Below, in pieces: positions 3 through 11,689 of a stretch of DNA of 64,000 bases (position 1 is the stretch's first letter; the number at the start of each line of letters is the position of its first letter). Under the pieces are notes generated by a model. That model saw nothing but the letters and a program-made list of their open reading frames with translations, searched no databases and had not been told where the DNA came from. Source of the DNA: an uncultured Mycoplasmatota bacterium (lineage in GTDB: Bacteria; Bacillota_I; Bacilli_A; RF39; UBA660); the NCBI GenBank assembly GCA_948466395.1, contig CAOKAG010000001.1, positions 14,584 to 78,583 on the forward strand. The letters run 5' to 3'. A program made the position numbers and the translations under genes.

Positions 3-965
3 CTATCTAGCACCTTGTTGTTTCTGTCTTTCCATAGCCCTATTGTAATAGTCTAATGCTTTGTAAATGTGTTTTACCCATTCAGTTGTTGGCATACCAC
101 TGGGCATTTTAGGTTTTAAGTCTTTAAAATCCAATTTTAGTTTTTCAACTTGATTAGGTTTTTCACGGCTCATTATTTCTTCGATTTTATCTTCATCTAA
201 TTTACCGTTCTTACTTAAATCTTTCATTTCTTGGGCTTGGGATACAGTTGGTGTAGCAACATTACATTCCATACTATCTAAAAGCCATTCTTGTTCTTGT
301 TTAGTAAGGAACGATATTTCATACGCAGGACTTAATGCTATACTCGGTGAAATATTAAGTGAATCATTATCTACCATATCAAGTAATGGTTTTATCAGTT
401 CAGTAAGTCTTATAAATCTATGAACATTAGACTTACTTTCTCCAACTTCTTCTGCTAATATCTCAAGAGATTTTTTGCCAGACAACTTGTTACCGACTTG
501 GGAACAAGTTAAATCATTTCTTTGTCCTTGATGTGTCATTGCTTCCAACTTCATTTTATAAGCATAGGCTCGTTCACTAGGTAAGATATGTTCTCTTTGT
601 AAGTTACTATCTACCATTATTATAGTGGCTTCATCATCTGTAAGGTTTCTGACAATACACGGCATAGTTTCTTTGTTAGCAATTTCACTTGCCTTTTTTC
701 TTCTATGTCCGGAAATCATTTGATACTTACCATTTGGAAGTGGTCTAACAAGTACAGGTAATAATACACCATACTCACTTATGCTTTGTGCCATTTCTTG
801 CATTTCTTCATTCACAATTACCTTAAATGGGTGATTTGGGAAATCTTGAATATCTGTTAGTGATATATCAACAACTTTTTCTAAACTACTATCTTGTCGT
901 TCTTGTTCTGTTGTAAATAAGTCATCTAACTTTGGCAACGGCATTTTTATATCGCTCTTTGCCAT
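3..965 (-). CDS. parB: ParB/RepB/Spo0J-family partition protein of the plasmid/ICE type. Start refined to the ATG preceded by AAAGGAGGTG; the ORF-track start at 1031 is probably too long.
   Basis: GHRRKKAS ParB-box region and an HTH region; RBS plus ATG MAKSDIKMPLPKLDDLF; a long, non-Spo0J C-terminal tail; overlaps the parA stop. Confidence 0.8.
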   Translation of the reverse strand: MAKSDIKMPLPKLDDLFTTEQERQDSSLEKVVDISLTDIQDFPNHPFKVIVNEEMQEMAQSISEYGVLLPVLVRPLPNGKYQMISGHRRKKASEIANKETMPCIVRNLTDDEATIIMVDSNLQREHILPSERAYAYKMKLEAMTHQGQRNDLTCSQVGNKLSGKKSLEILAEEVGESKSNVHRFIRLTELIKPLLDMVDNDSLNISPSIALSPAYEISFLTKQEQEWLLDSMECNVATPTVSQAQEMKDLSKNGKLDEDKIEEIMSREKPNQVEKLKLDFKDLKPKMPSGMPTTEWVKHIYKALDYYNRAMERQKQQGAR

Positions 966-1752
966 TTTCAAGCACCTCCTTTGCAAACGAAGAATATGCT
1001 TCTGCCACTTTGCTATTTTTATCATACTCAAAGATACTATTTCCAGTAGAAGTTGCTTCTGCTGTCTTTATTGCAAAAGGTATTTGTGTATCATAAAACT
1101 TAACTGCACTTCCATAATTTTCTTGTAGTTGTATTCTCATTTCTTTTGATAAGTTAGTTCTCTTATCTACTAGAGTAATTAAAACGCCATCTACTTTTAA
1201 TTTAGGATTGATTTGATTTCTTACTTTACTAACAGTCTTTAATAGTTCGGTCATTCCCATAGCAGAAAGATATTGACTTTGCATTGGGATTATAACACTA
1301 TCGGCACTTGCTAACGCATTAACTGTTAGTATTCCTAAAGATGGCTGACAGTCTATAAGAATATAATCATAATTTTCTTTTACTTTAGATAAACAGTTTC
1401 TCATAGTGTACTCCCTACTCATAGCACTAAACAATGACATTTCTAATACTGATAATCTTAAATTAGATGGAATTAAATCTATATTTTCTTGATGGTGTAA
1501 TATAGATTCACTTGTCTGGATATTTTCATCATTCATTGACTGTTCCATTAAATTAGCAATAGTTATCGGTATTTTATCAAGTTCTCGCCAACCCATAGAA
1601 ATCGTAAGACTTCCCTGTGGATCTGTATCAACTACTAATACTTTTTTGCCTTCCTTTGCTAAAGCAACACCTAGACTAAAAGTTGTGGTGGTCTTGCCCA
1701 CTCCACCTTTCTGATTAGCCACTGCAATAACTTTGCATTGCGACATATACAT
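922..1752 (-). CDS. parA: ParA/Soj-family partition ATPase
   Basis: Deviant Walker A KGGVGKTTTTFSLGVALA; AGGAGG RBS before MYMSQCKV; its 3' end overlaps parB. Confidence 0.85.
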   Translation of the reverse strand: MYMSQCKVIAVANQKGGVGKTTTTFSLGVALAKEGKKVLVVDTDPQGSLTISMGWRELDKIPITIANLMEQSMNDENIQTSESILHHQENIDLIPSNLRLSVLEMSLFSAMSREYTMRNCLSKVKENYDYILIDCQPSLGILTVNALASADSVIIPMQSQYLSAMGMTELLKTVSKVRNQINPKLKVDGVLITLVDKRTNLSKEMRIQLQENYGSAVKFYDTQIPFAIKTAEATSTGNSIFEYDKNSKVAEAYSSFAKEVLENGKERYKNAVAKVR

Positions 1753-1860
1753 TTTCCTCCTTTCTTTAAACTCTAGCCACTCTATAAAAATAAAATGGCT
1801 ATGTATGGGCATAAAAAAAGAACTGACTATTTCTAACCAGTTCAAAGTATGTTTATAAAA

Positions 1861-2028
1861 TTATCTTTTATTTGCCAACTTTAATAGCAATTTATCAATA
1901 TAATAAGTATCTTCATTATCTTTAATCAGTTTGTTTCTAAACTCTACTAATTCATCTATAATTATTCTATATTCATTATAATTTACTTTAAGTTTTATTT
2001 TTTTCATAAAAATTACACTTCCATTCAT
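1861..2028 (-). CDS. Small hypothetical ORF of about 48 to 55 aa (MKKIKLKVNYNEYRIIIDELVEFRNKLIKDNEDTYYIDKLLLKLANKR) immediately upstream of parA. Not in the ORF track because it is under 60 aa.
   Basis: Manual translation of the reverse strand; weak RBS; co-oriented with parAB. Confidence 0.2.
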   Translation of the reverse strand: MNGSVIFMKKIKLKVNYNEYRIIIDELVEFRNKLIKDNEDTYYIDKLLLKLANKR

Positions 2029-2115
2029 AAATATAGTATAATATGAATTGGTATTAAAATAAAAATGTGTGTTCTACTTTTTAAATGAATTTATCGACAA
2101 TTTATAGGGGGTTGC

Positions 2116-2340
2116 AATGTCGTAATCACCTTTCTAATTCTCATCATAAATATCATTAAAATCACTATGTTTTTATCAATTTTTAGTAATTTTACCACTT
2201 TTTACATTAAAATGTGCAAGATCTAAAATCAAAGAAAGCCTTTATTTATAAGGGTTTGCTAGGGGGTTGCAATAAATCGTAATCAACCAGTTTATATTTG
2301 TCGTATTTTGTCGATTATTTTCCATTTTTTCACTTCCTTA
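2116..2340. repeat. Cassette 3'-flank repeat, copy 1. About 225 bp, roughly 80% identical to 4156..4380.
   Basis: Direct by-eye alignment. Shared blocks include aatgtcgtaatcacc, actatgtttttat, aatgtgcaagatctaaaatc, tctttatttataa and ttgtcgattatt. Confidence 0.8.
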
Positions 2341-2857
2341 GTTTTTTTATTATTTTTCTTTCTTCTAATGATAAAATCTCACTTGCTTGTTCATCATATA
2401 AATTATTTGCTAATTCTACTGATGCTTCTAATAAAGATTGTAGATTTTCGTAAGGAATTTTGTCATAGTCTAATCTATACAACCAATCAAGATACTTAAT
2501 TTTAGAAGCATCATTTGGTCTTCCATAAACAACTTTTCCACTATGTAACCAATATCCGAATTCAACATTTGTGGTAAAGGCCGCCATATCTGGTAATTTT
2601 CTAGGTACCCAAAATAAAATTACTGTAGCATCTGTTAACGCTATTCTTTCCCACATTGCTTGATCAACATAGTCTTCTTTAGGTTTCCAAGTGGAGTATT
2701 CAGGAACATAAACTACTCCATCAAAGCCCATTTGTTCTAAATTTTGACAAGCTTCTGTTCTCCAAGAAACAACATTTTCACCTCGTGGAGTTGGGCCTGC
2801 TAAAAATATAGATTTTTTCCCCTTTATAACTTCTTGATCTGAATAATTAATTATCAT
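2330..2857 (-). CDS. Nucleoside 2-deoxyribosyltransferase-like (SLOG-superfamily) protein; cargo of cassette 1.
   Basis: FLAGPTPRG...ILFWVPR...TTNVEFGYW motifs resemble the Nuc_deoxyribosyltransferase-2-like family; RBS AAGAGG before the ATG; conserved 5' and 3' flanks shared with the gene at 4391..5407. Confidence 0.5.
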   Translation of the reverse strand: MIINYSDQEVIKGKKSIFLAGPTPRGENVVSWRTEACQNLEQMGFDGVVYVPEYSTWKPKEDYVDQAMWERIALTDATVILFWVPRKLPDMAAFTTNVEFGYWLHSGKVVYGRPNDASKIKYLDWLYRLDYDKIPYENLQSLLEASVELANNLYDEQASEILSLEERKIIKKLRK

Positions 2858-3180
2858 ATTATGCCTCTTTCATATTTATCTATATAAATTCTTTAAAACC
2901 TTAGTCAAACAATCATCAACAGTTTTATCTGTTTCAGAAAATCTAATTCTAACTAATTTTCTTTTTACCTTAAATATATAAGGATGCTTTGTCCTCACTA
3001 AAAAACGCCAATATTCTTTCATTACTAGGTTTTCTTTTGTTTATTTTTATATCTGTTATTTCATCCACATCTCCTAAATTTACATCATCAGATTTATATT
3101 TCTACATCTTTCTAATTTTTCTACTAATTCTTCAATATTATATTTATTCATAAATTCACACTCCATATTAATTATAAATT
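2858..3180. repeat. Cassette 5'-flank repeat, copy 1. Homologous to 5408..5625, with an extra ~100-bp insertion at about 2906..3007. Contains a degenerate leader-ORF remnant.
   Basis: Blocks tctatataaattctttaaaacctt and aatattctttcattactaggttt...ttatttttatatctgttatttcat...cacatct..ctaaa...ttcaatattatatttatt are shared with copy 2. Confidence 0.75.
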
Positions 3181-4127
3181 CAAATACAATTAATGTTAAA
3201 TGTATACTTCTTATATGCAAGTTCTTGAGCTACTTTATGAGATACTTTTCCTGTATCATGCAGTATTTCTTGCCCATTAAATTGTAAAAATGCATCCAAT
3301 TTTTCTACCCAATCTTTCATTGTCATCGCATTATGATTTTCTGCTTGTAATTCAGCATAATCTAAATACATAGTAACTATTCTATTTAAGTTTTTTAATT
3401 CTTTTTCTGTCAAATAATTTTTAGCAATATCAACATCATATTTATAAATTGGTCCATTTGGAGAACCTGTCCAATTCGTTAAACCCATATTATCTTTTTC
3501 TGAATCAACTCTATTATAAATAATCTCCGCAGCAGTATTACCAATGACCGAATAATGAAGTTTGTTCTGCACAGTTTTAAAAAAAGTTTTAGTTATTTCA
3601 GAATCTTTATCATAATCGATACTACAAAATGAATATATATCTGTTATTTTTTGATAAAATCTTCTTTCGCTAGACCTGATATTCCTAATTCTTTCTAGTG
3701 TTCTTTCAAAATAATCTTCTCAAAAAAAATAGTTCGGATTTTTTAATCTCTCGTCATCTATAACAACACCAGTAATTAGATATTCTTTTAAAACTTTTGT
3801 TGCCCATATTCTAAACTGTGTTGCCTTTTTTGAATTAACACGATAACCAATCGCAATAATCATATCTAAATTGTATATTTTAGATTTTCTTCCACCTGTA
3901 CTTTCGTCGGAAATTCCGACAGAAGTTTTTTCATTAAGTTCACCACTATTTATTATATTATTAATATGCTCAGTTATTGTACTTCTTCCTACTCCAAATA
4001 ATTCAGCAATTAAATTTTGTGTTAACCAAATATCATTATTAATTAATAATACATTTACTTTAATATCGTTATTATCATCACGATAAATTAAAAAATCATG
4101 AGTAGTTATTTGTAAATCATTTTTCAT
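3180..4127 (-). pseudogene. rhuM: RhuM-family (virulence protein RhuM-like) gene interrupted by a single in-frame TGA at 3720..3722. The N-terminal part (3720..4127) and C-terminal part (3180..3572) are in the same frame.
   Basis: Translating through the gap gives a continuous RhuM-like sequence ...NPNYFF*EDYFERTLERIRNIRSSERRFYQKITDIY...TVQNKLHYSVIGNTAAEII...; the stop sits where family members have Gly (GGA to TGA). Confidence 0.7.
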
Positions 4128-4155
4128 TTATATTCACCTCTTTCTTATGTTCTTA

Positions 4156-4380
4156 AATGTCGTATTCACCTATCTAATTCCTATTATAAATAATGCCAAA
4201 ATTACTATGTTTTTATGAATTTTTATTGTTTTTTACCATTTTTTAATGGTAATATGCAAGACATAAAATCGAAGCAAGTCTTTATTTATAAAGATTTGAC
4301 TATGGTTTTACAGTTATCCCGATATCCATTTTATATTGGTTGTATTATGTCGATTATTGTTGTTCATATATATCACTTCC
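4156..4380. repeat. Cassette 3'-flank repeat, copy 2.
   Basis: Aligns with 2116..2340. Confidence 0.8.
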
Positions 4381-4390
4381 TTTTTTTCCA

Positions 4391-5407
4391 TTATATTTCA
4401 ATATCTATACCAATATTTTCAAGTTTTGCCTTTTCAATTAACTCTATCGCTAAAGCTAAATCTTGCAAAAATATACCAGTGGAATCAAATATAGTTATAT
4501 CTTTATCACTAGTTCGCCCCTTTTTTTGATTCAATATTACTTCTCCTATTTCACCATCTATTGATGAAATAATACTATTCCTAAATGCTGTTTGCATTTC
4601 ACCATTTTCAATACATTGTTTCGTATCGTCAGCAAATATGATCGCTTTTTTAAATGTTTCCGAATCTATTTCTTGTTTATTGGGCATACCGCCTCCCATA
4701 CAACTAAAGTGCGTTCCTTCTTTAACCCAATCAACTTTAATCATTGATTTTTCTGATGGGGTTGCTGTGATAATAATATCACTTTCTTTGACACTTTCTT
4801 CTATATTTTCTGAACTTATAATAGTTGCTTTTATAGTTTTATTAGATAAATCCAAAATACTTTGTACATCACTTTTAAGTTTTTTAACTTTTTCAACCAA
4901 ACCAGTATTATTTTTAGGATTACAGACAATAACATTTTCGATTTGAGGCATTGCAATTAAGATTGCAGCAATAGAATGTAAAGCCACATTTCCACATCCT
5001 ACTATTAATACATTTTTTGAATCTTTTCTTGCTAAATATTTCGCCCCTATTGCTGCAGCGGCACCAGTTCTAAAAGCTGTAATCGATGCAACATTCACTA
5101 AAGCTGTAGGTTGACCTGTAATAGAATTAAAAATTAAACCTGTAGCATTTACTTTTGGTAGATTTTTTTTCAAATTGTTTTCATTATAAGAAATTACCTT
5201 TAATCCAAAAGAGTTATAGCCATCTAAATTTCCAGACCTTATGTCTAAATCAAAAATATTGTGTTCGTATTCGTAAAAAATTAAAGGCCATACATGACTA
5301 TTAGTACTATTTTTCTCTCTATATGCATTTTCTACTGCTCGAATGGCTAATTCCATATCTATTAGGCTATTTACATCATTCTCATTTAATACTTTTATTT
5401 TTGTCAT
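4391..5407 (-). CDS. Ornithine cyclodeaminase / mu-crystallin-family NAD(P)-dependent enzyme; cargo of cassette 2.
   Basis: Rossmann GCGNVA motif; AFRTGAAAAIGAKYLARKDSK is typical of the OCD/mu-crystallin family; RBS AAGAGGAAAA before the ATG. Confidence 0.8.
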   Translation of the reverse strand: MTKIKVLNENDVNSLIDMELAIRAVENAYREKNSTNSHVWPLIFYEYEHNIFDLDIRSGNLDGYNSFGLKVISYNENNLKKNLPKVNATGLIFNSITGQPTALVNVASITAFRTGAAAAIGAKYLARKDSKNVLIVGCGNVALHSIAAILIAMPQIENVIVCNPKNNTGLVEKVKKLKSDVQSILDLSNKTIKATIISSENIEESVKESDIIITATPSEKSMIKVDWVKEGTHFSCMGGGMPNKQEIDSETFKKAIIFADDTKQCIENGEMQTAFRNSIISSIDGEIGEVILNQKKGRTSDKDITIFDSTGIFLQDLALAIELIEKAKLENIGIDIEI

Positions 5408-5625
5408 ATTTTTTCCTCTTATCTATATAAATTCTTTAAAACCTTTCAATAATAAATCCAATATTTTTCATTACTAGGTTTCTTCTATCTATTTTTATAT
5501 CTGTTATTTCATTCACATCTTCTAAAATTACGTCATTAAGGGTTACATTTCTAGAACGTTCTAACTTTTCTTTTAATTCATTAATATTATATTTATTCCT
5601 ATTCTACCTTCTCTATAATAATTTT
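5408..5625. repeat. Cassette 5'-flank repeat, copy 2. Carries an intact-frame but start-less leader-ORF remnant NKYNINELKEKLERSRNVTLNDVILEDVNEITDIKIDRRNLVMKNIGFIIERF.
   Basis: Aligns with 2858..3180. Confidence 0.75.
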
Positions 5626-5743
5626 ATCTTTTGTGCATTATTCAATATGTCAAGTTAACATTTTTCAATGTAATTCTAAATTAGATAACAACATCTCTAA
5701 TATTTGAGTGTTTGTGAACTTAGGATTCAGTTCTCTCCATCTT

Positions 5744-6187
5744 CTATTTATTATTATCCTCTTTTTTAATGTATTTTTCTATTTTTTTGACATAAGCTTC
5801 TTTAAGGTTTTCTCCAAATTTCGGTTTAAATTGGTCTAAGTACTCTAAAATTAAATCCGCATAGTCTTCTATTTTTTCATCTTTTACTATCTTTGCTAAA
5901 TATTTATTAATTCCTTTTTGGCTATTTATTCTTTCTATATAAAAAGCTAAAAGATTTGTAGTACCTATTTTTTCTTTAGCGGTGGAAACAATGGAATAAA
6001 GTTTTTCTCTCGAAACAGAATAGCGTGGTTTAAAACCTCCAGCTCTGGAAAACATAATTAAAGCACAACCTATAAAAAGTTTATCTGTTCCATTTTGAGG
6101 AAACGTTTTGTGAGTAAATTCAATTAAACTCTCTTTATTTCCTTTTTCAAAGTCATCATAAAGTTCCATTAAAATTCGATTTATCAA
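5744..6187 (-). CDS. Hypothetical protein (147 aa)
   Basis: ORF with coding-like composition; last gene of the co-oriented lepB...Qng1 run; no family recognised. Confidence 0.45.
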   Translation of the reverse strand: MINRILMELYDDFEKGNKESLIEFTHKTFPQNGTDKLFIGCALIMFSRAGGFKPRYSVSREKLYSIVSTAKEKIGTTNLLAFYIERINSQKGINKYLAKIVKDEKIEDYADLILEYLDQFKPKFGENLKEAYVKKIEKYIKKEDNNK

Positions 6188-6208
6188 AAATCAACACCTC
6201 ATTTTTGG

Positions 6209-6901
6209 TTATTTTAATTTTTTATAGAAATCCTCTCGCCAATTGCTTCTTTTTCCATTTTTTCTTATGTAATTCAATGAACCATAGCAAGTCTTTGGAT
6301 CACTTAAAAATTCTATTTTTTCTATTTCATCTAATTCAATACGCCAGACACATCCTTGTAAAATATCGCTTTCTTCTGTGATACACAAATCAAAACTTTT
6401 TTTAATTTCATTACAAATATTTAAATAATCTTTATCCATCCGATGGGATTCATATTTATCTGGTCTAGATAGAGCTTTTAATTCTTCTTTTGTAATGTTT
6501 AGTTTTTGTAATTTTTTATCAAATCTTTCTTTATCTAAAAGATTTTTAGGAATGTACATATTATTTAATAAAAAAGAATATCTTCTAAAATCAGTAATGA
6601 AAATTTCTTTTTTAGGTTTATTAAATGTTATTTTCACATCAAAACCTTTCACAGGTGTACCTTTATGTTTAGGAGGACAAATTCCGTTGTAACACTTTAC
6701 CCAACACCAAATGGGATAGTGAATTTGATGGGGATTATTAAGAACTTTATTCATTTTTTCTATAACCCAAGAATAGGTTGCTTCACTCTTTTTCAAGTCT
6801 ATAAAGTTTGAATTCGCTTCTAGATAGCCTTTGTTTAATAAATCTTTTAAAGCGTTTAAAGATTGAAATGTTATGAGTTTCATTTGCTTGTTTCCTTTCA
6901 C
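6209..6901 (-). CDS. DUF3841-like hypothetical protein
   Basis: Conserved aromatic motif HYPIWCW near residue 60 recalls the DUF3841 family. This is from memory, not a search. Confidence 0.45.
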   Translation of the reverse strand: MKGNKQMKLITFQSLNALKDLLNKGYLEANSNFIDLKKSEATYSWVIEKMNKVLNNPHQIHYPIWCWVKCYNGICPPKHKGTPVKGFDVKITFNKPKKEIFITDFRRYSFLLNNMYIPKNLLDKERFDKKLQKLNITKEELKALSRPDKYESHRMDKDYLNICNEIKKSFDLCITEESDILQGCVWRIELDEIEKIEFLSDPKTCYGSLNYIRKNGKRSNWREDFYKKLK

Positions 6902-7037
6902 TTGTGTTTATTATATCACGTCTTTTTATAACTTCGAAAATAATCTTTAATATAAAAAACAAATCTTTAGTAAGAATTGTTTCTTTCACTTTAAGAGTTA
7001 AAATTTTATAGGCATTTTTTTAATCTCTTCTTTATTT

Positions 7038-7982
7038 TTAATAAGAAGTGGTTCGAGTTAAATGATAAGGTTTAGTCTTTTTGGTTTTATTTTGACTCCT
7101 ATTCCAGATAAAGTTATTAATATCCATTCTGTCTATTTTACCTCGCATTTTTTCATGAATATAATTTATGACGATAAGCATACTCGCTCTAATTTCCACT
7201 TCGTCTTCATTATTTTCGAGTATTTCAATTTTATTGATGATTTTATTTTCTAGTTCTTTATTGTATTCTAAAATACCTAAATCATGCATAACTTGAGGAA
7301 TCTTATAATCCGCACACCCCAAAAGACTTGAATAATCGACGTTTTTTTGTTCTTTTCTTTCTATGACATATAAAATATCAGAGGTTAAAAGTTGTGCTAA
7401 TTTGTAAAAATAAATCGTTTTATTTTTATAAGTTCTTATATCATCAAAACAAGGAAAGTTCTCTATAATTGTATTAAATATTTCTATATCGGAATTCATT
7501 TCTTTTATCCATTCATAAAAATTGCTATTCATTTTTTCATTTACTCTTTTAACTATTTCAATGACTCTTTTGTATCTTTCTTCTAAAAGAGGAATTTCAA
7601 CATTTCCTTTTAAAATTTCTTTAAATTTTTCAAGGGTCATTTTTTCTAAACGCTTATAAACTTCTACACTATCACGCTTTTCAAATAAATTAAAAATACA
7701 ATGTAAAAGTGCCATTCCTCCATCTAGTTGTTTACTATCTGTTGTAATGGTCCATTTAGGCTCTCCCCAAAAAGAAAAATCTATAGCGTCATAGATGAGA
7801 AGAAAATTTACAATGTCTTTCGTATTCATTTCGTAAATAGGATAAGGAACTTTTGTGAGATAATGGCTCTTTTCAAATTTAGCAAATTCTTCGATTAATT
7901 CATTGGCTTTTTCATAATTAATTTTTACATATTTGGCCTTATCTACTACAAACTGGTTGGTTTCTAATACTTTACTTAACAT
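7038..7982 (-). CDS. Qng1/DUF2419-like queuosine-salvage protein (queuosine 5'-phosphate N-glycosylase/hydrolase family)
   Basis: IYDAIDFSFWG and GCADYKIPQVMHDLGIL motifs are characteristic of the DUF2419/Qng1 family (IDF..FW and ADY.IPQ). Confidence 0.55.
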   Translation of the reverse strand: MLSKVLETNQFVVDKAKYVKINYEKANELIEEFAKFEKSHYLTKVPYPIYEMNTKDIVNFLLIYDAIDFSFWGEPKWTITTDSKQLDGGMALLHCIFNLFEKRDSVEVYKRLEKMTLEKFKEILKGNVEIPLLEERYKRVIEIVKRVNEKMNSNFYEWIKEMNSDIEIFNTIIENFPCFDDIRTYKNKTIYFYKLAQLLTSDILYVIERKEQKNVDYSSLLGCADYKIPQVMHDLGILEYNKELENKIINKIEILENNEDEVEIRASMLIVINYIHEKMRGKIDRMDINNFIWNRSQNKTKKTKPYHLTRTTSY

Positions 7983-8003
7983 CTTTTTTCTTCCTTTCTT
8001 TTA

Positions 8004-8465
8004 TTACTTTTTTATTAAGCCCCCACTACATTTTAAGACATAGATTTTTTTATCGTTTTTATAAATGGTCTCTGTCCCATTAAAATAAAACAAATCTCCT
8101 TCTACTTCAAACGTGTATTTGTATTCTCCGTTTATCCATTCTCTTGGTCCTCTAACAGGAATGGTGTCATCGCTTCCTACTTGCATTAATGCGGGTCTTA
8201 AAGCTTTATCCATGGCTTCTTCACTTAAGGTTTCATCCAAAGTTACCCCATAATAATTCATTCCCCAATAGATTTCTTTGTCTTTATAGATGACTTCTTC
8301 TCCAATAAAATTGGTTCCTCCAAAATAGGTGTCATGATAAATCATATTCTCTTTTTGGTAGTCGTAATCATTTGAATTTAATCGGGTACTTGCTGTTTTT
8401 CTTGTCTTTCCATTTGCATAAGTTTGTTTTTTGGCCTCTATTAAAAATTCTTCAATTTTTTTCAT
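8004..8465 (-). CDS. DUF5680-like hypothetical protein
   Basis: YHDTYFGGTNFIGEE...WGMNYYG...GEYKYTF pattern recalled from the DUF5680 family; low certainty. Confidence 0.4.
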   Translation of the reverse strand: MKKIEEFLIEAKKQTYANGKTRKTASTRLNSNDYDYQKENMIYHDTYFGGTNFIGEEVIYKDKEIYWGMNYYGVTLDETLSEEAMDKALRPALMQVGSDDTIPVRGPREWINGEYKYTFEVEGDLFYFNGTETIYKNDKKIYVLKCSGGLIKK

Positions 8466-8469
8466 TTTT

Positions 8470-9153
8470 CTAATTTATATACTCCCATATTTTATTGTAC
8501 TGTTTTAATTGTTCGTTTTTTTTAATTTGAGCAACGGGGTGATATAAAGGGATTATAACATAATTTTCAATTTTAATTATAGATGTTTCAATGGTTTCTT
8601 TTAAATTTTTTTTTATTTTAAAATTATATATTTTTGACAAGGCGACTAATGGATAATAACCTAATGGAACTAAAACAATCGGTTTTACAATGTCTATTTG
8701 TTTTTTTAAATAGTCACAACAGTTTAGGGTAGATTGTTTTAAATTTATATTGTTACCACGATAACTTACCCCTTGCCTTGCACACATAATAGCATTCGTT
8801 ATAAAAGCTTCTTGTAACGTATGTTTCCCATTTGAAGATTGCTCTATATTCTTTTCTAATAATTTTTTGGTATGGCTTTTTTCAGATTCGATTAATTCTT
8901 TCCAATTGCTTTTATCAGGAAGAAGTTTTTTGTTTAATTCGTTCATATCTATGAAAGGTCCCCAATCTTGACCAATAATCATGACTTTACTGTTTAAATG
9001 TTGAAACCAATCGGTCCAAATAGAAGGAATGTTTTTGGCAAAAGTTAAATCTTTATATAGATTGATTAAATTTTTTTCTTTACAATTGTATTGCATACAT
9101 TTTTGACACGTTTTTAATTGCTTTAGCAAGACTTCAAATTGTTCTTTTTTCAT
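8470..9153 (-). CDS. Uracil-DNA glycosylase superfamily protein, a family-4-like variant
   Basis: N-terminal CQKCMQYNC cluster and IIGQDWGP where UDG4 has VGEAPG; C-terminal YHP where UDGs have HPSP. Confidence 0.5.
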   Translation of the reverse strand: MKKEQFEVLLKQLKTCQKCMQYNCKEKNLINLYKDLTFAKNIPSIWTDWFQHLNSKVMIIGQDWGPFIDMNELNKKLLPDKSNWKELIESEKSHTKKLLEKNIEQSSNGKHTLQEAFITNAIMCARQGVSYRGNNINLKQSTLNCCDYLKKQIDIVKPIVLVPLGYYPLVALSKIYNFKIKKNLKETIETSIIKIENYVIIPLYHPVAQIKKNEQLKQYNKIWEYIN

Positions 9154-9201
9154 TTTGACTTTTACTTTCTATAATCCACTGAATATCTTCGATGGCTTTA
9201 T

Positions 9202-9804
9202 TTAAATTAAACCTTCCATTTCCAACAGGATAAAATACTGAATAAAAGGTATACTTTTTTTATTTATTTCTTTTATAAATTCTTTTCTTCTAACTTTTGA
9301 GACAGCGATTTTTTCTTTTAAAATTAAAGAACTAACTTGATTACCAAATAATAAAATAATTTTAGGAGCAACTATCTCAATTTCTCTGAATAATAATTTC
9401 AAGTATTTTTTATAAATACTATCGGGAAGGGGTCGAGCGTCTATTTGGGTACATTTTCCTAAATTAGTTATAAAAACTTTATGTTTTTCTACATCCTCAT
9501 AAACCCTTTTTGCAAATTTAACGTCCCATTCCTGTCCTTTTCTAATTTTAATTTCTTTATAAATGTCTTCACTTAATAAATTCAATGAAAAAAATAAATC
9601 CCAACTCTTTTTTGTGCCTAACCAAGGGGCTCTAATCCCCTCCCATGTTTTCGATGAAGCGGGATTTTTTCCTGTAGGATTCATAAAAACAAAGCAAAAA
9701 TCTGGATGTTTTAAACATCCTCCATTATAAATAGCGCTTAATTCTTTTGCGCCATATTTTTCTTGTAATTTATCGTATTCTTTATTTAACTCTTCTAGGT
9801 TCAT
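9202..9804 (-). CDS. UDG-superfamily-like protein, SMUG/MUG-type motif
   Basis: FVFMNPTGKNP resembles the GINPG/GMNPG motif-1 of MUG/SMUG. The second motif is unclear, so this is weakly supported. Confidence 0.35.
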   Translation of the reverse strand: MNLEELNKEYDKLQEKYGAKELSAIYNGGCLKHPDFCFVFMNPTGKNPASSKTWEGIRAPWLGTKKSWDLFFSLNLLSEDIYKEIKIRKGQEWDVKFAKRVYEDVEKHKVFITNLGKCTQIDARPLPDSIYKKYLKLLFREIEIVAPKIILLFGNQVSSLILKEKIAVSKVRRKEFIKEINKKSIPFIQYFILLEMEGLI

Positions 9805-9814
9805 CTATTACTCC

Positions 9815-10102
9815 TTATTTTTGTTTTTCTGGGTAATCCTTATCCTTCCAATACCACCATTTTAATTTTTCTTCGTCCCAAGAAGTATGTTCAGCATAAT
9901 AGATGGCCATTCTAAAAAGATACAATTCGCACTTGTCTTCTTTAAATCCTTTGCATTCACAATCTTTTAAATAAAGGTCTTCTGGATTTTGACCGACTAA
10001 ATCTTCTACATAATTTATACCAATATTTTTTAAAGCAAGCTTCGTTCTTTTTCCAACGTTTGGAATGGTTTTTAAATCGGTTTTCATTCGGATTGTCCCC
10101 AT
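9815..10102 (-). CDS. Helix-hairpin-helix DNA-binding protein (Cdd1 / 'pathogenicity locus' family)
   Basis: [33 protein letters not shown] HhH motif. Confidence 0.6.
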
Positions 10103-10596
10103 TCAATCTCAATTTTTTTACTCTTTATTGAATTTATTTTTTTATAGGTAATCCCACAAGTGTCAAAGAGTTTTCGAGAAGCAATATTGTTATCACTTTC
10201 TCTATATTTATCACTTAAATAAATGACTTCTTTAATTCCTGATTGAATAATGGCTTTGGCACATTCATTACAAGGAAATAAATCTACATAAATTTTAGAA
10301 CCTTCTAAATCCTTACTACTTCCTCGAAAGTTTAATATTGCGTTCAATTCAGCGTGACAAACATAAAAATATTTTGTTTCTAAAGGGGTCCCTTCTCTTT
10401 CCCAAGGAAAGGTATCATCACTGAATCCATTTGGTGTTCCATTATACCCGATGGACAAAATGCGATTGTCTTTTCCAACTATGCAAGCTCCTACTTGAGT
10501 TTTGGGGTCTTTACTACGCATGGCTGATAGTTTTGCTATGCCCATAAAATATTCGTCCCAAGATAAATAATTTTCTCTTTTTTTACTTTTTATCAT
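10084..10596 (-). CDS. comEB: dCMP (deoxycytidylate) deaminase, ComEB type
   Basis: Zinc-binding HAELNAI and PCNECAK motifs. Confidence 0.85.
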
Positions 10597-11087
10597 TTTT
10601 CTACCTTTCCAAAACGGCTAAAAGGAAAGATTATAAAATCAGCGGTACCTTTAATTTGATTTTTTTTAATAGGACCAATATAACGACTGTCTAATGAAAC
10701 GGCACGATTGTCTCCTAAAATAAAATATTCATCTTCTTCTAAGGTTATTTTTTCAAAATCACTGTTTTCACCATAAGCGTAAGCATCTTCTATTTTTTTA
10801 TCATTAATATAAATCGTATTGTTTTCGATAGAAATAGTTTCACCTGGAAGACCATAGATTCTTTTGATTAATTCATCATTATTGGCTTTTACAACTACAA
10901 TATCAAAACGTTCTATTTTACTCATTTTATTTAGGAGCATGTATTCGGTTCCTTCTAAAGTATCGTACATGGATTGGCCATTGACCTTTATTGGGGTAAT
11001 AAAGAAGGTTCTAATGGTTAAAACAACTATTAATATTAAAATGTATGGACCTAATTCTTTAATATTTTTTTTTATTTTTTCTTTCAT
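10593..11087 (-). CDS. lepB: Signal peptidase I
   Basis: N-terminal [10 protein letters not shown] Ser box, GDNR..S.DSR box; follows rplS as in many Firmicutes. Confidence 0.85.
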
Positions 11088-11127: not shown

Positions 11128-11190
11128 TGAAAAAAAGAAGTCATACTTCTTCATTTTCAAATAAAAAAAGATGTTTTAAGCGACATCTTT
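11128..11190 (-). terminator. Tandem Rho-independent terminators after rplS
   Basis: Hairpin AGATGT-cgcttaaa-ACATCT overlaps the stop codon and is followed by TTTTTTTATTT; a second hairpin AAGAAGT-atg-ACTTCTT plus a T-run follows. Confidence 0.6.
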
Positions 11191-11538
11191 TGCACTAGCG
11201 TTTCTTTCTTTAACTTTATATTCTTTACGCATATTTTTAATAAAGTTAAGTTTTGCACGGCGAACCATGCCTCTTTTCACCACTGTAATTTTATCAATCG
11301 TCGGTGCATTAATAGGAAAAACTCTTACTACTCCAACACTTCCTGATTTTTTACGTACTGAAAAAGTTTCAGATACTCCAGAACCTTTTTTAGCAATAAC
11401 AATTCCTTCAAAAGCTTGGATTCTTTCTTTTTTTCCTTCAATAACTTTAACGTCTACTCTTACAATGTCTCCAACACGAAATTCTGGAACATCGGTTCTC
11501 ATGTGGCGTTTGTTAATTTTGTCTACTAAATTAGCCAT
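11176..11538 (-). CDS. rplS: 50S ribosomal protein L19
   Basis: MANLVDKINKRHMRTDVPEFRVGDIVRVDVKVIEGKKERIQAFEG matches L19 over its full length. Confidence 0.95.
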   Translation of the reverse strand: MANLVDKINKRHMRTDVPEFRVGDIVRVDVKVIEGKKERIQAFEGIVIAKKGSGVSETFSVRKKSGSVGVVRVFPINAPTIDKITVVKRGMVRRAKLNFIKNMRKEYKVKERNASAKDVA

Positions 11539-11689
11539 ATTTTTTCCTTTCTAACTTTTCTTCTGTAATCATTAACGATTTATTTAAGCGGATTACATGC
11601 CTTGCTTTTTTAAAGCACTTCGATTATATCAGAAAATTGAAAAAATTGCAAATTATTTTGACGAATGATTTTAAAGGCTCCCTTAAACT

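Follow-up and report, generated by a model that had tools for sequence, protein, structure and literature searches.

The eight genes that follow lepB on the minus strand of the 64,000-nucleotide stretch analysed here (the window) probably form a lineage-specific mosaic of single-gene functions rather than a co-evolving pathway. The host clade appears to consist of uncultured, AT-rich gut Bacilli ("Mollicutes"-type MAGs), in which accessory genes would have accumulated between lepB and rbgA, independently acquired and separately lost, beside a strain-variable island. All eight open reading frames (ORFs) of the run are present (positions 5744-10596), and a Pfam profile search gave matches above threshold for every gene except the 147-aa ORF, which confirms the family assignments of the preliminary description (Table 1).

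Table 1. Features of the run and its flanks, in window coordinates
Feature	Position	Strand	Evidence
rplS (ribosomal protein L19), upstream anchor	11176..11538	-	ORF; identical protein annotated PF01245 in relatives
lepB, signal peptidase I	10593..11087	-	Pfam Peptidase_S26 E=2e-41; TIGR02227 score 140 vs cut-off 47
dCMP/cytidine deaminase, 170 aa, single domain	10084..10596	-	PF00383 (dCMP_cyt_deam_1) E=3e-27
Cdd1-family helix-hairpin-helix (HhH) protein, 90-95 aa	9815..10102	-	PF11731 E=2e-21
UDG_A, divergent UDG-superfamily protein	intact form 9134..9804, 223 aa; called ORF 9202-9804, 200 aa	-	PF03167 E=3e-7
UDG_B, family-4-like UDG-superfamily protein	8470..9153	-	PF03167 E=8e-11
DUF5680 protein, 153 aa	8004..8465	-	PF18931 E=2e-28
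Qng1/Q_salvage-family nucleotide N-glycosidase, 314 aa	7038..7982	-	PF10343 E=8e-47
DUF3841 protein, 224 aa from M7	6209..6883	-	DUF3841 Pfam E=1e-24
147-aa orphan, no family	5744..6187	-	no Pfam, NCBIfam, PADLOC or PHROG match
Flank differing between strains	3..5407	-	Pfam
Ornithine-cyclodeaminase-family gene	4391-5407	-	Pfam
RhuM, split	3180-3572 and 3720-4127	-	Pfam
Nuc_deoxyri_tr2	2330-2857	-	Pfam
ParA	922-1845	-	Pfam
ParB	3-1031	-	Pfam

The run lies downstream of rplS and lepB, and a promoter scan lists a promoter-like site with a TG-extended -10 (11623-11652) with rplS. The deaminase ORF overlaps lepB by 4 nt, the Cdd1 start overlaps the deaminase stop, and the intact form of UDG_A overlaps UDG_B by 20 nt. 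With spacing this close, and with some ORFs overlapping, a common transcript starting on the rplS side is probable. The preliminary description had stressed a co-directional, tightly packed run. The packing holds, with 7 of 8 junctions at ≤50 bp compared to 45% of same-strand junctions in the window (binomial p about 0.02), which makes the run somewhat tighter than usual here; the shared direction is background, since 56 of the 62 window ORFs are on the minus strand. The GC content of the run genes (0.26-0.32) is within about one standard deviation of the window genes (0.30 +/- 0.03). The canonical Firmicutes order is rplS-lepB-rbgA-rnhB, of which rplS-lepB is kept here, and in a contig from the same species (L065) rbgA, with its WYPGHM motif, comes directly after the run. 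The run thus does stand in place of the usual lepB-rbgA junction, as had been proposed. Throughout the clade it sits between these two genes, where accessory genes spanning about 4.4 kb are inserted together with the strain-variable island, which carries ParAB/RhuM in the window and GmrSD in other strains. The same flank position elsewhere in the clade holds either rbgA, or GmrSD with a third UDG.

Conservation of this neighbourhood, suggested earlier as a check, was found in the same species (contigs L005, L065, L069 and L056, protein identity 95-100%) and in one sister species (L066-68 and L070, dS 0.4-0.7 for flanking genes), and in none of the loci compared outside that clade. Even within it the genes are eroded. 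Of UDG_B, L065 retains no more than the final 47 aa, and in L066 and L070 the gene is split. DUF3841 has an internal deletion in L069, and the deaminase is split in L068. In the sister lineage an FGase insertion breaks Qng1 and DUF3841 has shrunk to its final 56 aa, and in the window itself alignment shows UDG_A to be frameshifted (A7 at 9255-9261, A8 in three same-species contigs). Read from these sequences, the members decay independently and are lost one at a time, while some of the events could be MAG assembly errors. Rates of evolution relative to the sister species are also unequal, with a dN/dS of 0.05 for the deaminase, 0.08 for Cdd1 and 0.05 for DUF5680, versus about 0.2 for UDG_B and 0.19 for the orphan, which is 80% identical to its sister-species copy. 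The dN of UDG_A and UDG_B is 3-5x that of their neighbours, and the dS of 1.5 for UDG_A suggests that its allele has been replaced. The five proximal genes (deaminase, Cdd1, UDG_A, UDG_B and DUF5680) are kept together across the two species, and purifying selection on three of them is strong; with the tight junctions, a functional sub-unit among these five is possible.

Outside the clade, comparison of about 20 kb around each homologue places these genes almost entirely apart. An orthologue of Qng1 occurs in 17 other species genomes (16 at 65-72% identity, L020 at 43%), and the full run is found in 0/17; DUF3841 is adjacent in one and UDG_A is 5.4 kb away in one. The Qng1-DUF3841 adjacency occurs in two lineages (the window and L018), in opposite gene order, and is unlikely to be pure chance. 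In the surroundings of the 26 UDG_B loci from outside the species (48-65% identity), Cdd1, DUF5680, Qng1 and DUF3841 are absent and UDG_A is nearby in 2. Homologues of DUF5680 and DUF3841 occur in several contexts unrelated to the run, and neither a UDG nor a deaminase adjoins the Cdd1 homologues of Monoglobus and Listeria. One integrase/Mob_Pre/AAA_25 element family carries Qng1 and UDG_B as cargo, and the gene immediately upstream is RhuM at 5 UDG_B loci and 2 Qng1 loci. Of the 17 UDG_B loci with at least 3 kb of flank, 9 or more have a relaxase, Mob_Pre, AbiEii or recombinase gene close by, some of these calls being based on sequence motifs alone. Nucleotide enzymes often neighbour these families elsewhere (NUDIX, UMPH-1, NDT-like, Ham1 and adenosine deaminase/PNP), which hints at a shared theme.

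UDG_A and UDG_B are divergent members of their superfamily, and both score far under the cut-offs of the family-4 equivalog models TIGR00758 (30 versus 125 for UDG_B) and NF040953. With the family-4 UDGs of T. thermophilus (1UI0) and S. tokodaii (4ZBX; E=8e-5), UDG_B shares the four Fe-S cysteines, the FITN..C core and the HP of motif B; in a 12-sequence alignment C16, C19, C124 and C145 are invariant and motif B reads HPVAQ. UDG_A, which also finds its best solved relatives in 1ui0 and 4zbx, shares with them the central core, to which the match is confined, and unlike them lacks the conserved Fe-S cysteine set and the motif-B His. Motif A, GE[AG]PG in family-4 UDGs, is GQDWGP in UDG_B and FMNPTG in UDG_A. 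The C-terminal motif YPVGNG is present in intact UDG_A, of which 223-aa relatives exist, and absent from the 200-aa ORF.

Judging by its 224-aa relatives, M7 (6883) is the most likely start of DUF3841. A confident structure model resembles ADP-ribosyltransferases weakly, with DarT among the top matches; scores against DarT, Tpt1 and other enzymes of this fold are weak and not significant in Foldseek, and the catalytic motifs of ADP-ribosyltransferases were not identified in it. Unlike DarT, it has no DarG-like macrodomain partner, and the gene is usually solitary. DUF5680 is strongly conserved, with homologues about 75% identical, one of them in a Clostridia MAG; no solved structural relative was found for it, nor a PDB relative for the 147-aa orphan.

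Of the alternatives to a mosaic, a role in phage defence fares best, though we regard it as unlikely. Here UDG_A and/or UDG_B would be glycosylases of the Brig1/Brig2 type, cutting hypermodified pyrimidines out of the DNA of phages. DUF3841 would be a DarT-like nucleic-acid ADP-ribosyltransferase, and the run the edge of a defence island. Brig1 and Brig2 are likewise divergent single-gene UDG-fold enzymes with a patchy distribution, fast evolution and frequent proximity to mobile elements or defence genes (PMC11078745; 10.1101/2025.10.29.685425), and the best structural match of Brig1 is also the S. tokodaii family-4 UDG (4ZBY) (PMC11078745). The mobility of UDG_B, its RhuM and AbiEii neighbours and the AT-rich setting recall published defence glycosylases, which are mobile and found in AT-rich regions (10.1101/2025.10.29.685425). 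Relative to the flanks UDG_B evolves faster and UDG_A has apparently been replaced, GmrSD and a third UDG lie just downstream in sister strains, and the predicted fold of DUF3841 is ADP-ribosyltransferase-like. Against this, the surroundings of the genes are those of a ribosomal-protein operon, their GC is not atypical, and UDG_B lies in a repair context, with Ogt and Tag, in L047 and L050. The PADLOC library of 2023, which predates Brig, gave no match; there was none in PHROG, with no relatives in viral contigs, and none to Brig1 in PDB sequence searches, which may not contain a Brig1 entry. The DUF3841 fold match is weak, and no macrodomain or antitoxin is adjacent.

A housekeeping function in uracil control is improbable. 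The dCMP deaminase would raise dUMP/dUTP, the two adjacent UDGs, assisted by the DNA-binding Cdd1, would be the main uracil-excision repair enzymes of the cell, and the distal genes would be unrelated passengers. Production of dUMP and excision of uracil are functionally connected, two species keep the order deaminase-Cdd1-UDG_A-UDG_B, UDG_B has the family-4 cysteines and motif-B His, and a family-1 Ung motif was not found within the window. However, a sole housekeeping repair enzyme is not expected to evolve at 3-5x the dN of its neighbours, nor to be deleted, split or frameshifted between strains as UDG_B and UDG_A are; both score far below the family-4 cut-offs, and UDGs do not adjoin Cdd1 homologues elsewhere. 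For the deaminase itself the earlier name comEB is too specific, as TIGR02571 scores 93 versus a cut-off of 219, and both the ComEB and the anti-phage dCTP deaminase models fall far under their cut-offs in the profile search.

The Qng1 homologue bears on the proposal, made in the preliminary description, of a dedicated module in which the deaminase, both UDG-fold enzymes, DUF5680, Qng1 and DUF3841 act jointly on DNA or the nucleotide pool to cut out and recycle a single modified base, for example a 7-deazaguanine or a deaminated one. It matches S. thermophilus Qng1 (StQng1, 7uk3), a queuosine-5'-monophosphate N-glycosidase like human QNG1 (PMC9881137), end to end (E=1e-39). StQng1 residues K199 and D231 (the HhH-type catalytic Lys and Asp), Y232, W302 and the invariant terminal Tyr, which in Qng1 accompany a closed, nucleotide-sized site (PMC9881137), are kept as K194, D225, Y226, W293 and Y314. 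These features make Qng1 a nucleotide hydrolase whose cleft is closed to DNA, and the homologue fits that role rather than that of a third DNA glycosylase. Differences from StQng1 lie in the base-contacting Asp298, which is Asn (N289) here and in the majority of 133 diverse relatives, and in the aromatic cyclopentenediol pocket (Y93, W94 and W299), which becomes G, M and N. No tgt was seen within the window. Many bacterial Qng1 genes stand alone, as this homologue usually does, and Qng1 is by now an accepted marker of queuine salvage in bacteria (PMC9881137, PMC11130926), so its being best known from eukaryotes is no longer grounds for surprise.

A single dedicated module has little probability, despite the tight junctions, the two species that keep the proximal five genes, the second lineage with Qng1 next to DUF3841 and the fact that most (the earlier text had "every") recognisable members act on bases or nucleotides, because synteny is confined to one narrow clade, single members are lost while the remainder stays intact, the genes are almost never together in other genomes, the nucleotide-type site and C-terminal carboxylate of Qng1 are not those of a DNA enzyme, and the UDG-fold enzymes characterised to date excise mostly pyrimidines and, in some families, hypoxanthine/xanthine, and are not known to excise 7-deazapurines (PMC11078745; 10.1101/2025.10.29.685425).

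If the run is a mosaic, as we favour, each of its genes would work alone. The deaminase, by its family, would supply dUMP, and Cdd1 would be a small DNA-binding HhH protein. DUF3841 would be an ADP-ribosyltransferase-fold protein. The conserved catalytic residues of the Qng1 homologue suggest that it hydrolyses a 7-deazapurine (queuosine-type) 5'-nucleotide, freeing the base for salvage, while UDG_A and UDG_B may be DNA glycosylases that remove pyrimidines, either uracil-like or modified, serving in repair or in Brig-type phage defence.

Seven of the eight ORFs in the run that follows rplS and lepB have Pfam family matches in a profile search (see the table). All recognisable genes of the run belong to known families, exactly those to which the preliminary description had assigned them. 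The eighth ORF, the 147-aa orphan, has zero matches in Pfam, NCBIfam, PADLOC, PHROGs and PDB. The run had been described as tightly packed and co-directional. As 56 of the 62 window ORFs lie on the minus strand, shared direction is simply the background of this window and is uninformative, while the packing stands: seven of eight junctions are at most 50 bp, against 45% window-wide (p ~0.02), so that the spacing is tighter than background, but only moderately. rplS is preceded by a good promoter-like site, and the genes of the run are probably co-transcribed. Intrinsic terminators within the run amount to two weak matches, the number expected from shuffling, and a convincing internal terminator was rejected on that basis. 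GC and GC3 fall inside the window's spread, which led us to reject a foreign composition, and riboswitch or other RNA control was rejected since no Rfam family reaches its gathering score anywhere in the window. No tRNAs were found in the window.

Features of the run, its flanks and the compared loci
Feature	Sequence	Position	Strand	Pfam E-value	Place
ParB, ParA and Nuc_deoxyri_tr2 genes	window	3-2857			beyond the orphan
RhuM-family gene, two ORFs	window	3180-3572, 3720-4127			beyond the orphan
Orphan, 147 aa	window	5744-6187	minus		run
DUF3841	window		minus	1e-24	run
Q_salvage/Qng1	window	7038-7982	minus	8e-47	run
DUF5680	window	8004-8465	minus	2e-28	run
UDG_B, UDG superfamily	window	8470-9153	minus	8e-11	run
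UDG_A, UDG superfamily	window	9134-9804	minus	3e-7	run
A7 tract of UDG_A	window	9255-9261			run
Cdd1 HhH protein	window		minus	2e-21	run
dCMP/cytidine deaminase	window		minus	3e-27	run
lepB	window	10593-11087	minus		between rplS and run
rplS	window	11176-11538	minus		upstream of run
Qng1 element	L001-L004	about 860-9700			
UDG_B element	L034	457-6687			
Ogt to UDG_B group	L047	2395-5398			
Ogt to UDG_B group	L050	3705-6708			
PfkB to Qng1 group	L016	2633-6858			
PfkB to Qng1 group	L022	6592-10366			
FGase-Qng1 fusion	L068	12582-13499			

The neighbourhood was surveyed by looking up the identical L19 protein, which returned 21 contigs of six neighbourhood kinds. All six carry the run, in two lineages: the window's own species (95-100% protein identity) and one sister species. 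In the same-species contig L065, rbgA (WYPGHM motif) comes directly after the run. This identifies the run as an insert between lepB and rbgA, which are normally neighbours, and bears out the displaced gene order proposed in the preliminary description. Conservation in relatives was found for these two species only, and no co-occurrence of the run was found in independent lineages. It is absent from 17 Qng1 loci (20 kb each, tblastn with all window proteins), from 26 other UDG_B loci, none of which has Cdd1, DUF5680, Qng1 or DUF3841, and from the DUF5680 and DUF3841 loci. The exceptions to this separation are one Qng1 locus (L018) with DUF3841 directly upstream, and three loci with UDG_A within about 5 kb, namely one Qng1 locus (L020, 5.4 kb) and two of the 26 UDG_B loci (L036, L051). 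A phage origin was rejected: the deaminase alone has a PHROG match, and three viral-contig scans with Cdd1 and Qng1 (single sequence, alignment) gave nothing.

Beyond the orphan, the window holds an ornithine-cyclodeaminase-family gene, a RhuM-family gene, a nucleoside 2-deoxyribosyltransferase-like gene (Nuc_deoxyri_tr2) and ParA/ParB. The RhuM gene is split into two ORFs and is therefore probably a pseudogene, and the stretch from ParB to Nuc_deoxyri_tr2 looks like the edge of a mobile element. Other contigs have GmrSD at this place, with or without a third UDG-superfamily gene, which precedes GmrSD in three sister-lineage contigs (L067, L068, L070).

Between the two species, protein identity is high for lepB (93%), the deaminase (91%), Cdd1 (89%) and DUF5680 (94%), and lower for UDG_A (63%), UDG_B (73%) and the orphan (80%). 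The flanking genes have a dS of 0.4-0.7. The deaminase, Cdd1 and DUF5680 have dN/dS ratios of 0.05-0.08, and UDG_B and the orphan of about 0.2, while UDG_A has a dS of 1.5, about two to four times that of its neighbours, as expected after divergent-allele replacement. Members of the run are also lost one at a time. UDG_B is cut to 47 residues in L065 and split in L066 and L070, L069 has an internal deletion in DUF3841, L068 has a split deaminase, and in the sister species Qng1 is in fragments or fused to an FGase domain and DUF3841 consists of its last 56 residues only. Some of these events may be artefacts of the metagenome-assembled genomes (MAGs). Joint gain or loss of run members was not seen; single-gene deletions, frameshifts and insertions stand beside intact neighbours. 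Overall, an interdependent system would not be expected to decay in this way, and the arrangement is both local and in decay. The reading we lean towards is that of a mosaic specific to this lineage and not of a pathway: accessory genes, each with a function of its own, would have gathered at a permissive site next to a variable island.

In the window, UDG_A has an A7 tract where three same-species contigs have A8. The first UDG gene of the preliminary description is a UDG-superfamily member as stated, but its called ORF is frameshifted; the intact form has 223 aa, a 20-nt overlap with the next gene and a C-terminal YPVGNG motif, of which the frameshift strips the window copy. The gene may truly be a pseudogene here, or the tract may be misassembled. 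Of the UDG models, both proteins pass only that of the superfamily, PF03167. UDG_A and UDG_B score 32.4 and 29.8 against TIGR00758 (family-4 UDG, cut-off 125.3) and 27-37 against NF040953 (cut-off 250), and were rejected as family-4 equivalogs. Family-4 enzymes have four Fe-S cysteines, a motif A of GE[AG]PG and a motif B with histidine. UDG_B has four invariant cysteines that match the Fe-S ligands and an HP motif B (HPVAQ), but its motif A differs (GQDWGP), whereas UDG_A has an Asn-type motif A (FMNPTG), no conserved Fe-S cysteine set and YPVGNG without the motif-B histidine.

A metagenome scan gave 28 UDG_B loci, two of them from the window's species or its sister (L056, L031) and 26 from elsewhere (48-65% identity). 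Several are on an element family with integrase, Mob_Pre and AAA_25 genes, or near relaxase, Mob_Pre, AbiEii or recombinase genes, and in five an intact RhuM lies immediately upstream. Two loci (L047, L050) have Ogt, a second, MGMT-like gene, Tag and a 275-aa unknown followed by UDG_B, an arrangement that resembles a small DNA-repair cluster. A 245-253 aa protein without Pfam match adjoins UDG_B in L043, L047, L050 and L051. A single weak match to UDG_B came from Bacillus phage SPR, and plasmids gave none.

For DUF3841, the start is probably M7, because relatives have 224 aa. A single-sequence AF2 model (pLDDT 41) was discarded, while an AlphaFold model from 41 homologues reached a pLDDT of 95. 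Foldseek returned no significant match for it, the best being DarT (E=0.2), so that a place near the ADP-ribosyltransferase (ART) fold is a lead, not an assignment. Homologues of DUF3841 adjoin adenosine deaminase/PNP, SPASM radical-SAM or unrelated genes.

These features bear on defence, where the UDGs would be antiviral glycosylases of the kind of the UDG-fold proteins Brig1 and Brig2, and DUF3841 a DarT-like enzyme. The UDG fold is present, the UDGs are mobile and evolve fast, GmrSD adjoins the run in other contigs, genes of mobile elements, RhuM or AbiEii lie near many UDG_B homologues, and recent work describes defence glycosylases (PMC11078745; 10.1101/2025.10.29.685425). However, UDG_B homologues also occur in repair or housekeeping contexts, and PADLOC gave no match. 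A defence role is conceivable, although we consider it unlikely.

The Qng1 homologue scores 160.6 bits against PF10343 (cut-off 25, residues 52-313), and it aligns over its full length with S. thermophilus Qng1 (7UK3), residues 5-314 against 10-323. The catalytic HhH residues Lys199 and Asp231 correspond to K194 and D225, the ribose-stacking Tyr232 and Phe75 to Y226 and F71, and Trp302 to W293. Each of these residues is kept by between 127 and 133 of 133 relatives. The exception is position 75, with Tyr in 77 relatives and Phe in 55. The last residue, Y314, is the invariant C-terminal Tyr, whose carboxylate completes the active site (PMC9881137). In Qng1 crystal structures the conserved residues make up a closed site of nucleotide size, and insertions peculiar to Qng1 obstruct the DNA cleft (PMC9881137). 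Judged by these kept residues, the closed site and the blocked cleft, the window protein is predicted to be a nucleotide hydrolase rather than a third DNA glycosylase.

The base-binding side of the site differs. In the S. thermophilus enzyme Asp298 reads the 7-deazaguanine edge, and W48, Y93, W94 and W299 form the aromatic pocket that takes up the side chain of queuine; in the window, Asp298 is replaced by N289, W299 by N290, Y93 by G89 and W94 by M90. Position 298 is Asn in 75 and Asp in 47 of the 133 diverse relatives, whereas both assayed and solved enzymes (S. thermophilus, human) carry Asp. We rejected the altered pocket as proof of a new substrate, since Asn298 is the majority state and not specific to this locus. 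With Asn at this position in the majority of relatives, the Q_salvage family may hold a separate specificity class. Bacterial Qng1 is already treated as a signature gene of queuine salvage (PMC11130926). No Tgt or QueA motifs were found in the 64-kb window.

A scan of a genome collection found Qng1 in 17 species-level MAGs ('uncultured Bacilli', 'Tenericutes', 'Mycoplasma sp.'), with 65-72% identity in 16 and 43% in L020. The closest neighbours change in nearly every species, with an intact RhuM directly upstream in two of the 17 loci. One orthologue (70% identity) is very common and is carried on an integrase/Mob_Pre/AAA_25 element, with NUDIX, GNAT and ASCH as well as a beta-lactamase-fold gene and a weak Nuc_deoxyrib_tr-like gene next to it. 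Qng1 (L001-L004) and UDG_B (L034) occupy equivalent cargo positions in one such element family, whose other cargo comprises NUDIX, GNAT, the beta-lactamase-fold gene, UMPH-1 nucleotidase, an NDT-like gene and ASCH. In two species (L016, L022), Qng1 is directly preceded by genes for a 654-aa PfkB-family kinase, a SIR2 deacylase and a short protein resembling a pyrophosphatase; as the kinase producing Q-5'-MP is unknown (PMC9881137), the PfkB protein is a candidate for it. Radical-SAM genes beside DUF3841 (L061, L062) or near Qng1 (L010) were rejected as the queuine lyase QueL, being generic SPASM-type maturases in NCBIfam with no QueL signal. Several Q_salvage proteins (representatives P0378, P0389 and P0433) have an N-terminal class-I methyltransferase domain. 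The sister-species fusion in L068 joins the FGase domain to the last ~100 residues of Qng1 and is probably a decay product.

Elsewhere, nucleotide-housecleaning enzymes (NUDIX, UMPH-1, NDT-like, Ham1, ADA/PNP, ASCH) are frequent in the examined flanks of the run families, and for this reason the looser idea of a guild is kept alive. The run would then be a local sample of a wider set of independently mobile enzymes: non-canonical UDG-fold glycosylases, Asn-type Qng1, ART-fold DUF3841 and DUF5680, joined elsewhere by NUDIX, UMPH-1, NDT-like and ASCH proteins. Gut Bacilli with reduced genomes would shuffle such genes between hot spots and mobilisable elements, and the enzymes would sense, break down or salvage modified nucleobases from phage DNA or scavenged nucleic acids, with Asn-type Qng1 acting on a 7-deazapurine or other modified nucleotide and not on queuosine. 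Taken whole, with these roles and this substrate, we regard the proposal as quite doubtful.

A dedicated module for a modified base, as the preliminary description had it, shares with our results the families and their base-directed flavour, but the lack of co-conservation, the losses of single genes and the nucleotide-type site of Qng1 make it improbable. What was first observed is confirmed with corrections, and what was read into it is partly supported.

The deaminase had been labelled comEB, a name its score against TIGR02571 does not sustain (93, cut-off 219); against NF041025, the anti-phage dCTP deaminase, it scores 86 (cut-off 400), matching in the deaminase core only, and both equivalences were rejected. 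Cdd1 was rejected as a fixed UDG partner because its homologues in Monoglobus and Listeria have other neighbours, with neither UDG nor deaminase adjoining. A housekeeping block for uracil control, made up of the deaminase, Cdd1 and the UDGs, is likewise very unlikely given that both UDGs are dispensable. The orphan was rejected as an immunity partner of DUF3841, since DUF3841 in other lineages lacks it as a neighbour. Homologues of DUF5680 (~75% identical, one in a Clostridia MAG) adjoin unrelated genes, e.g., NUDIX, HD, GNAT and Sua5, with an intact RhuM near DUF5680 in L026 and L027. The conservation of DUF5680 between the two species is unusually high, in both identity and dN/dS (0.05), and the family has no solved relative.

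The weight of the finding rests mainly on the mobile UDG subfamilies, Asn-type Qng1 and the predicted ART-like fold of DUF3841. A confident model would place DUF3841 near that fold, and a large Qng1 branch, of which no member has been assayed, has Asn in place of the base-reading Asp. The two UDG-superfamily subfamilies, with unusual catalytic motifs, travel on mobile elements and are candidate Brig-like antiviral glycosylases in gut Bacilli. If the run is indeed a mosaic, it would be a caution for compact, strand-biased genomes, where a tight co-directional run of genes with a common biochemical flavour is not necessarily a pathway.
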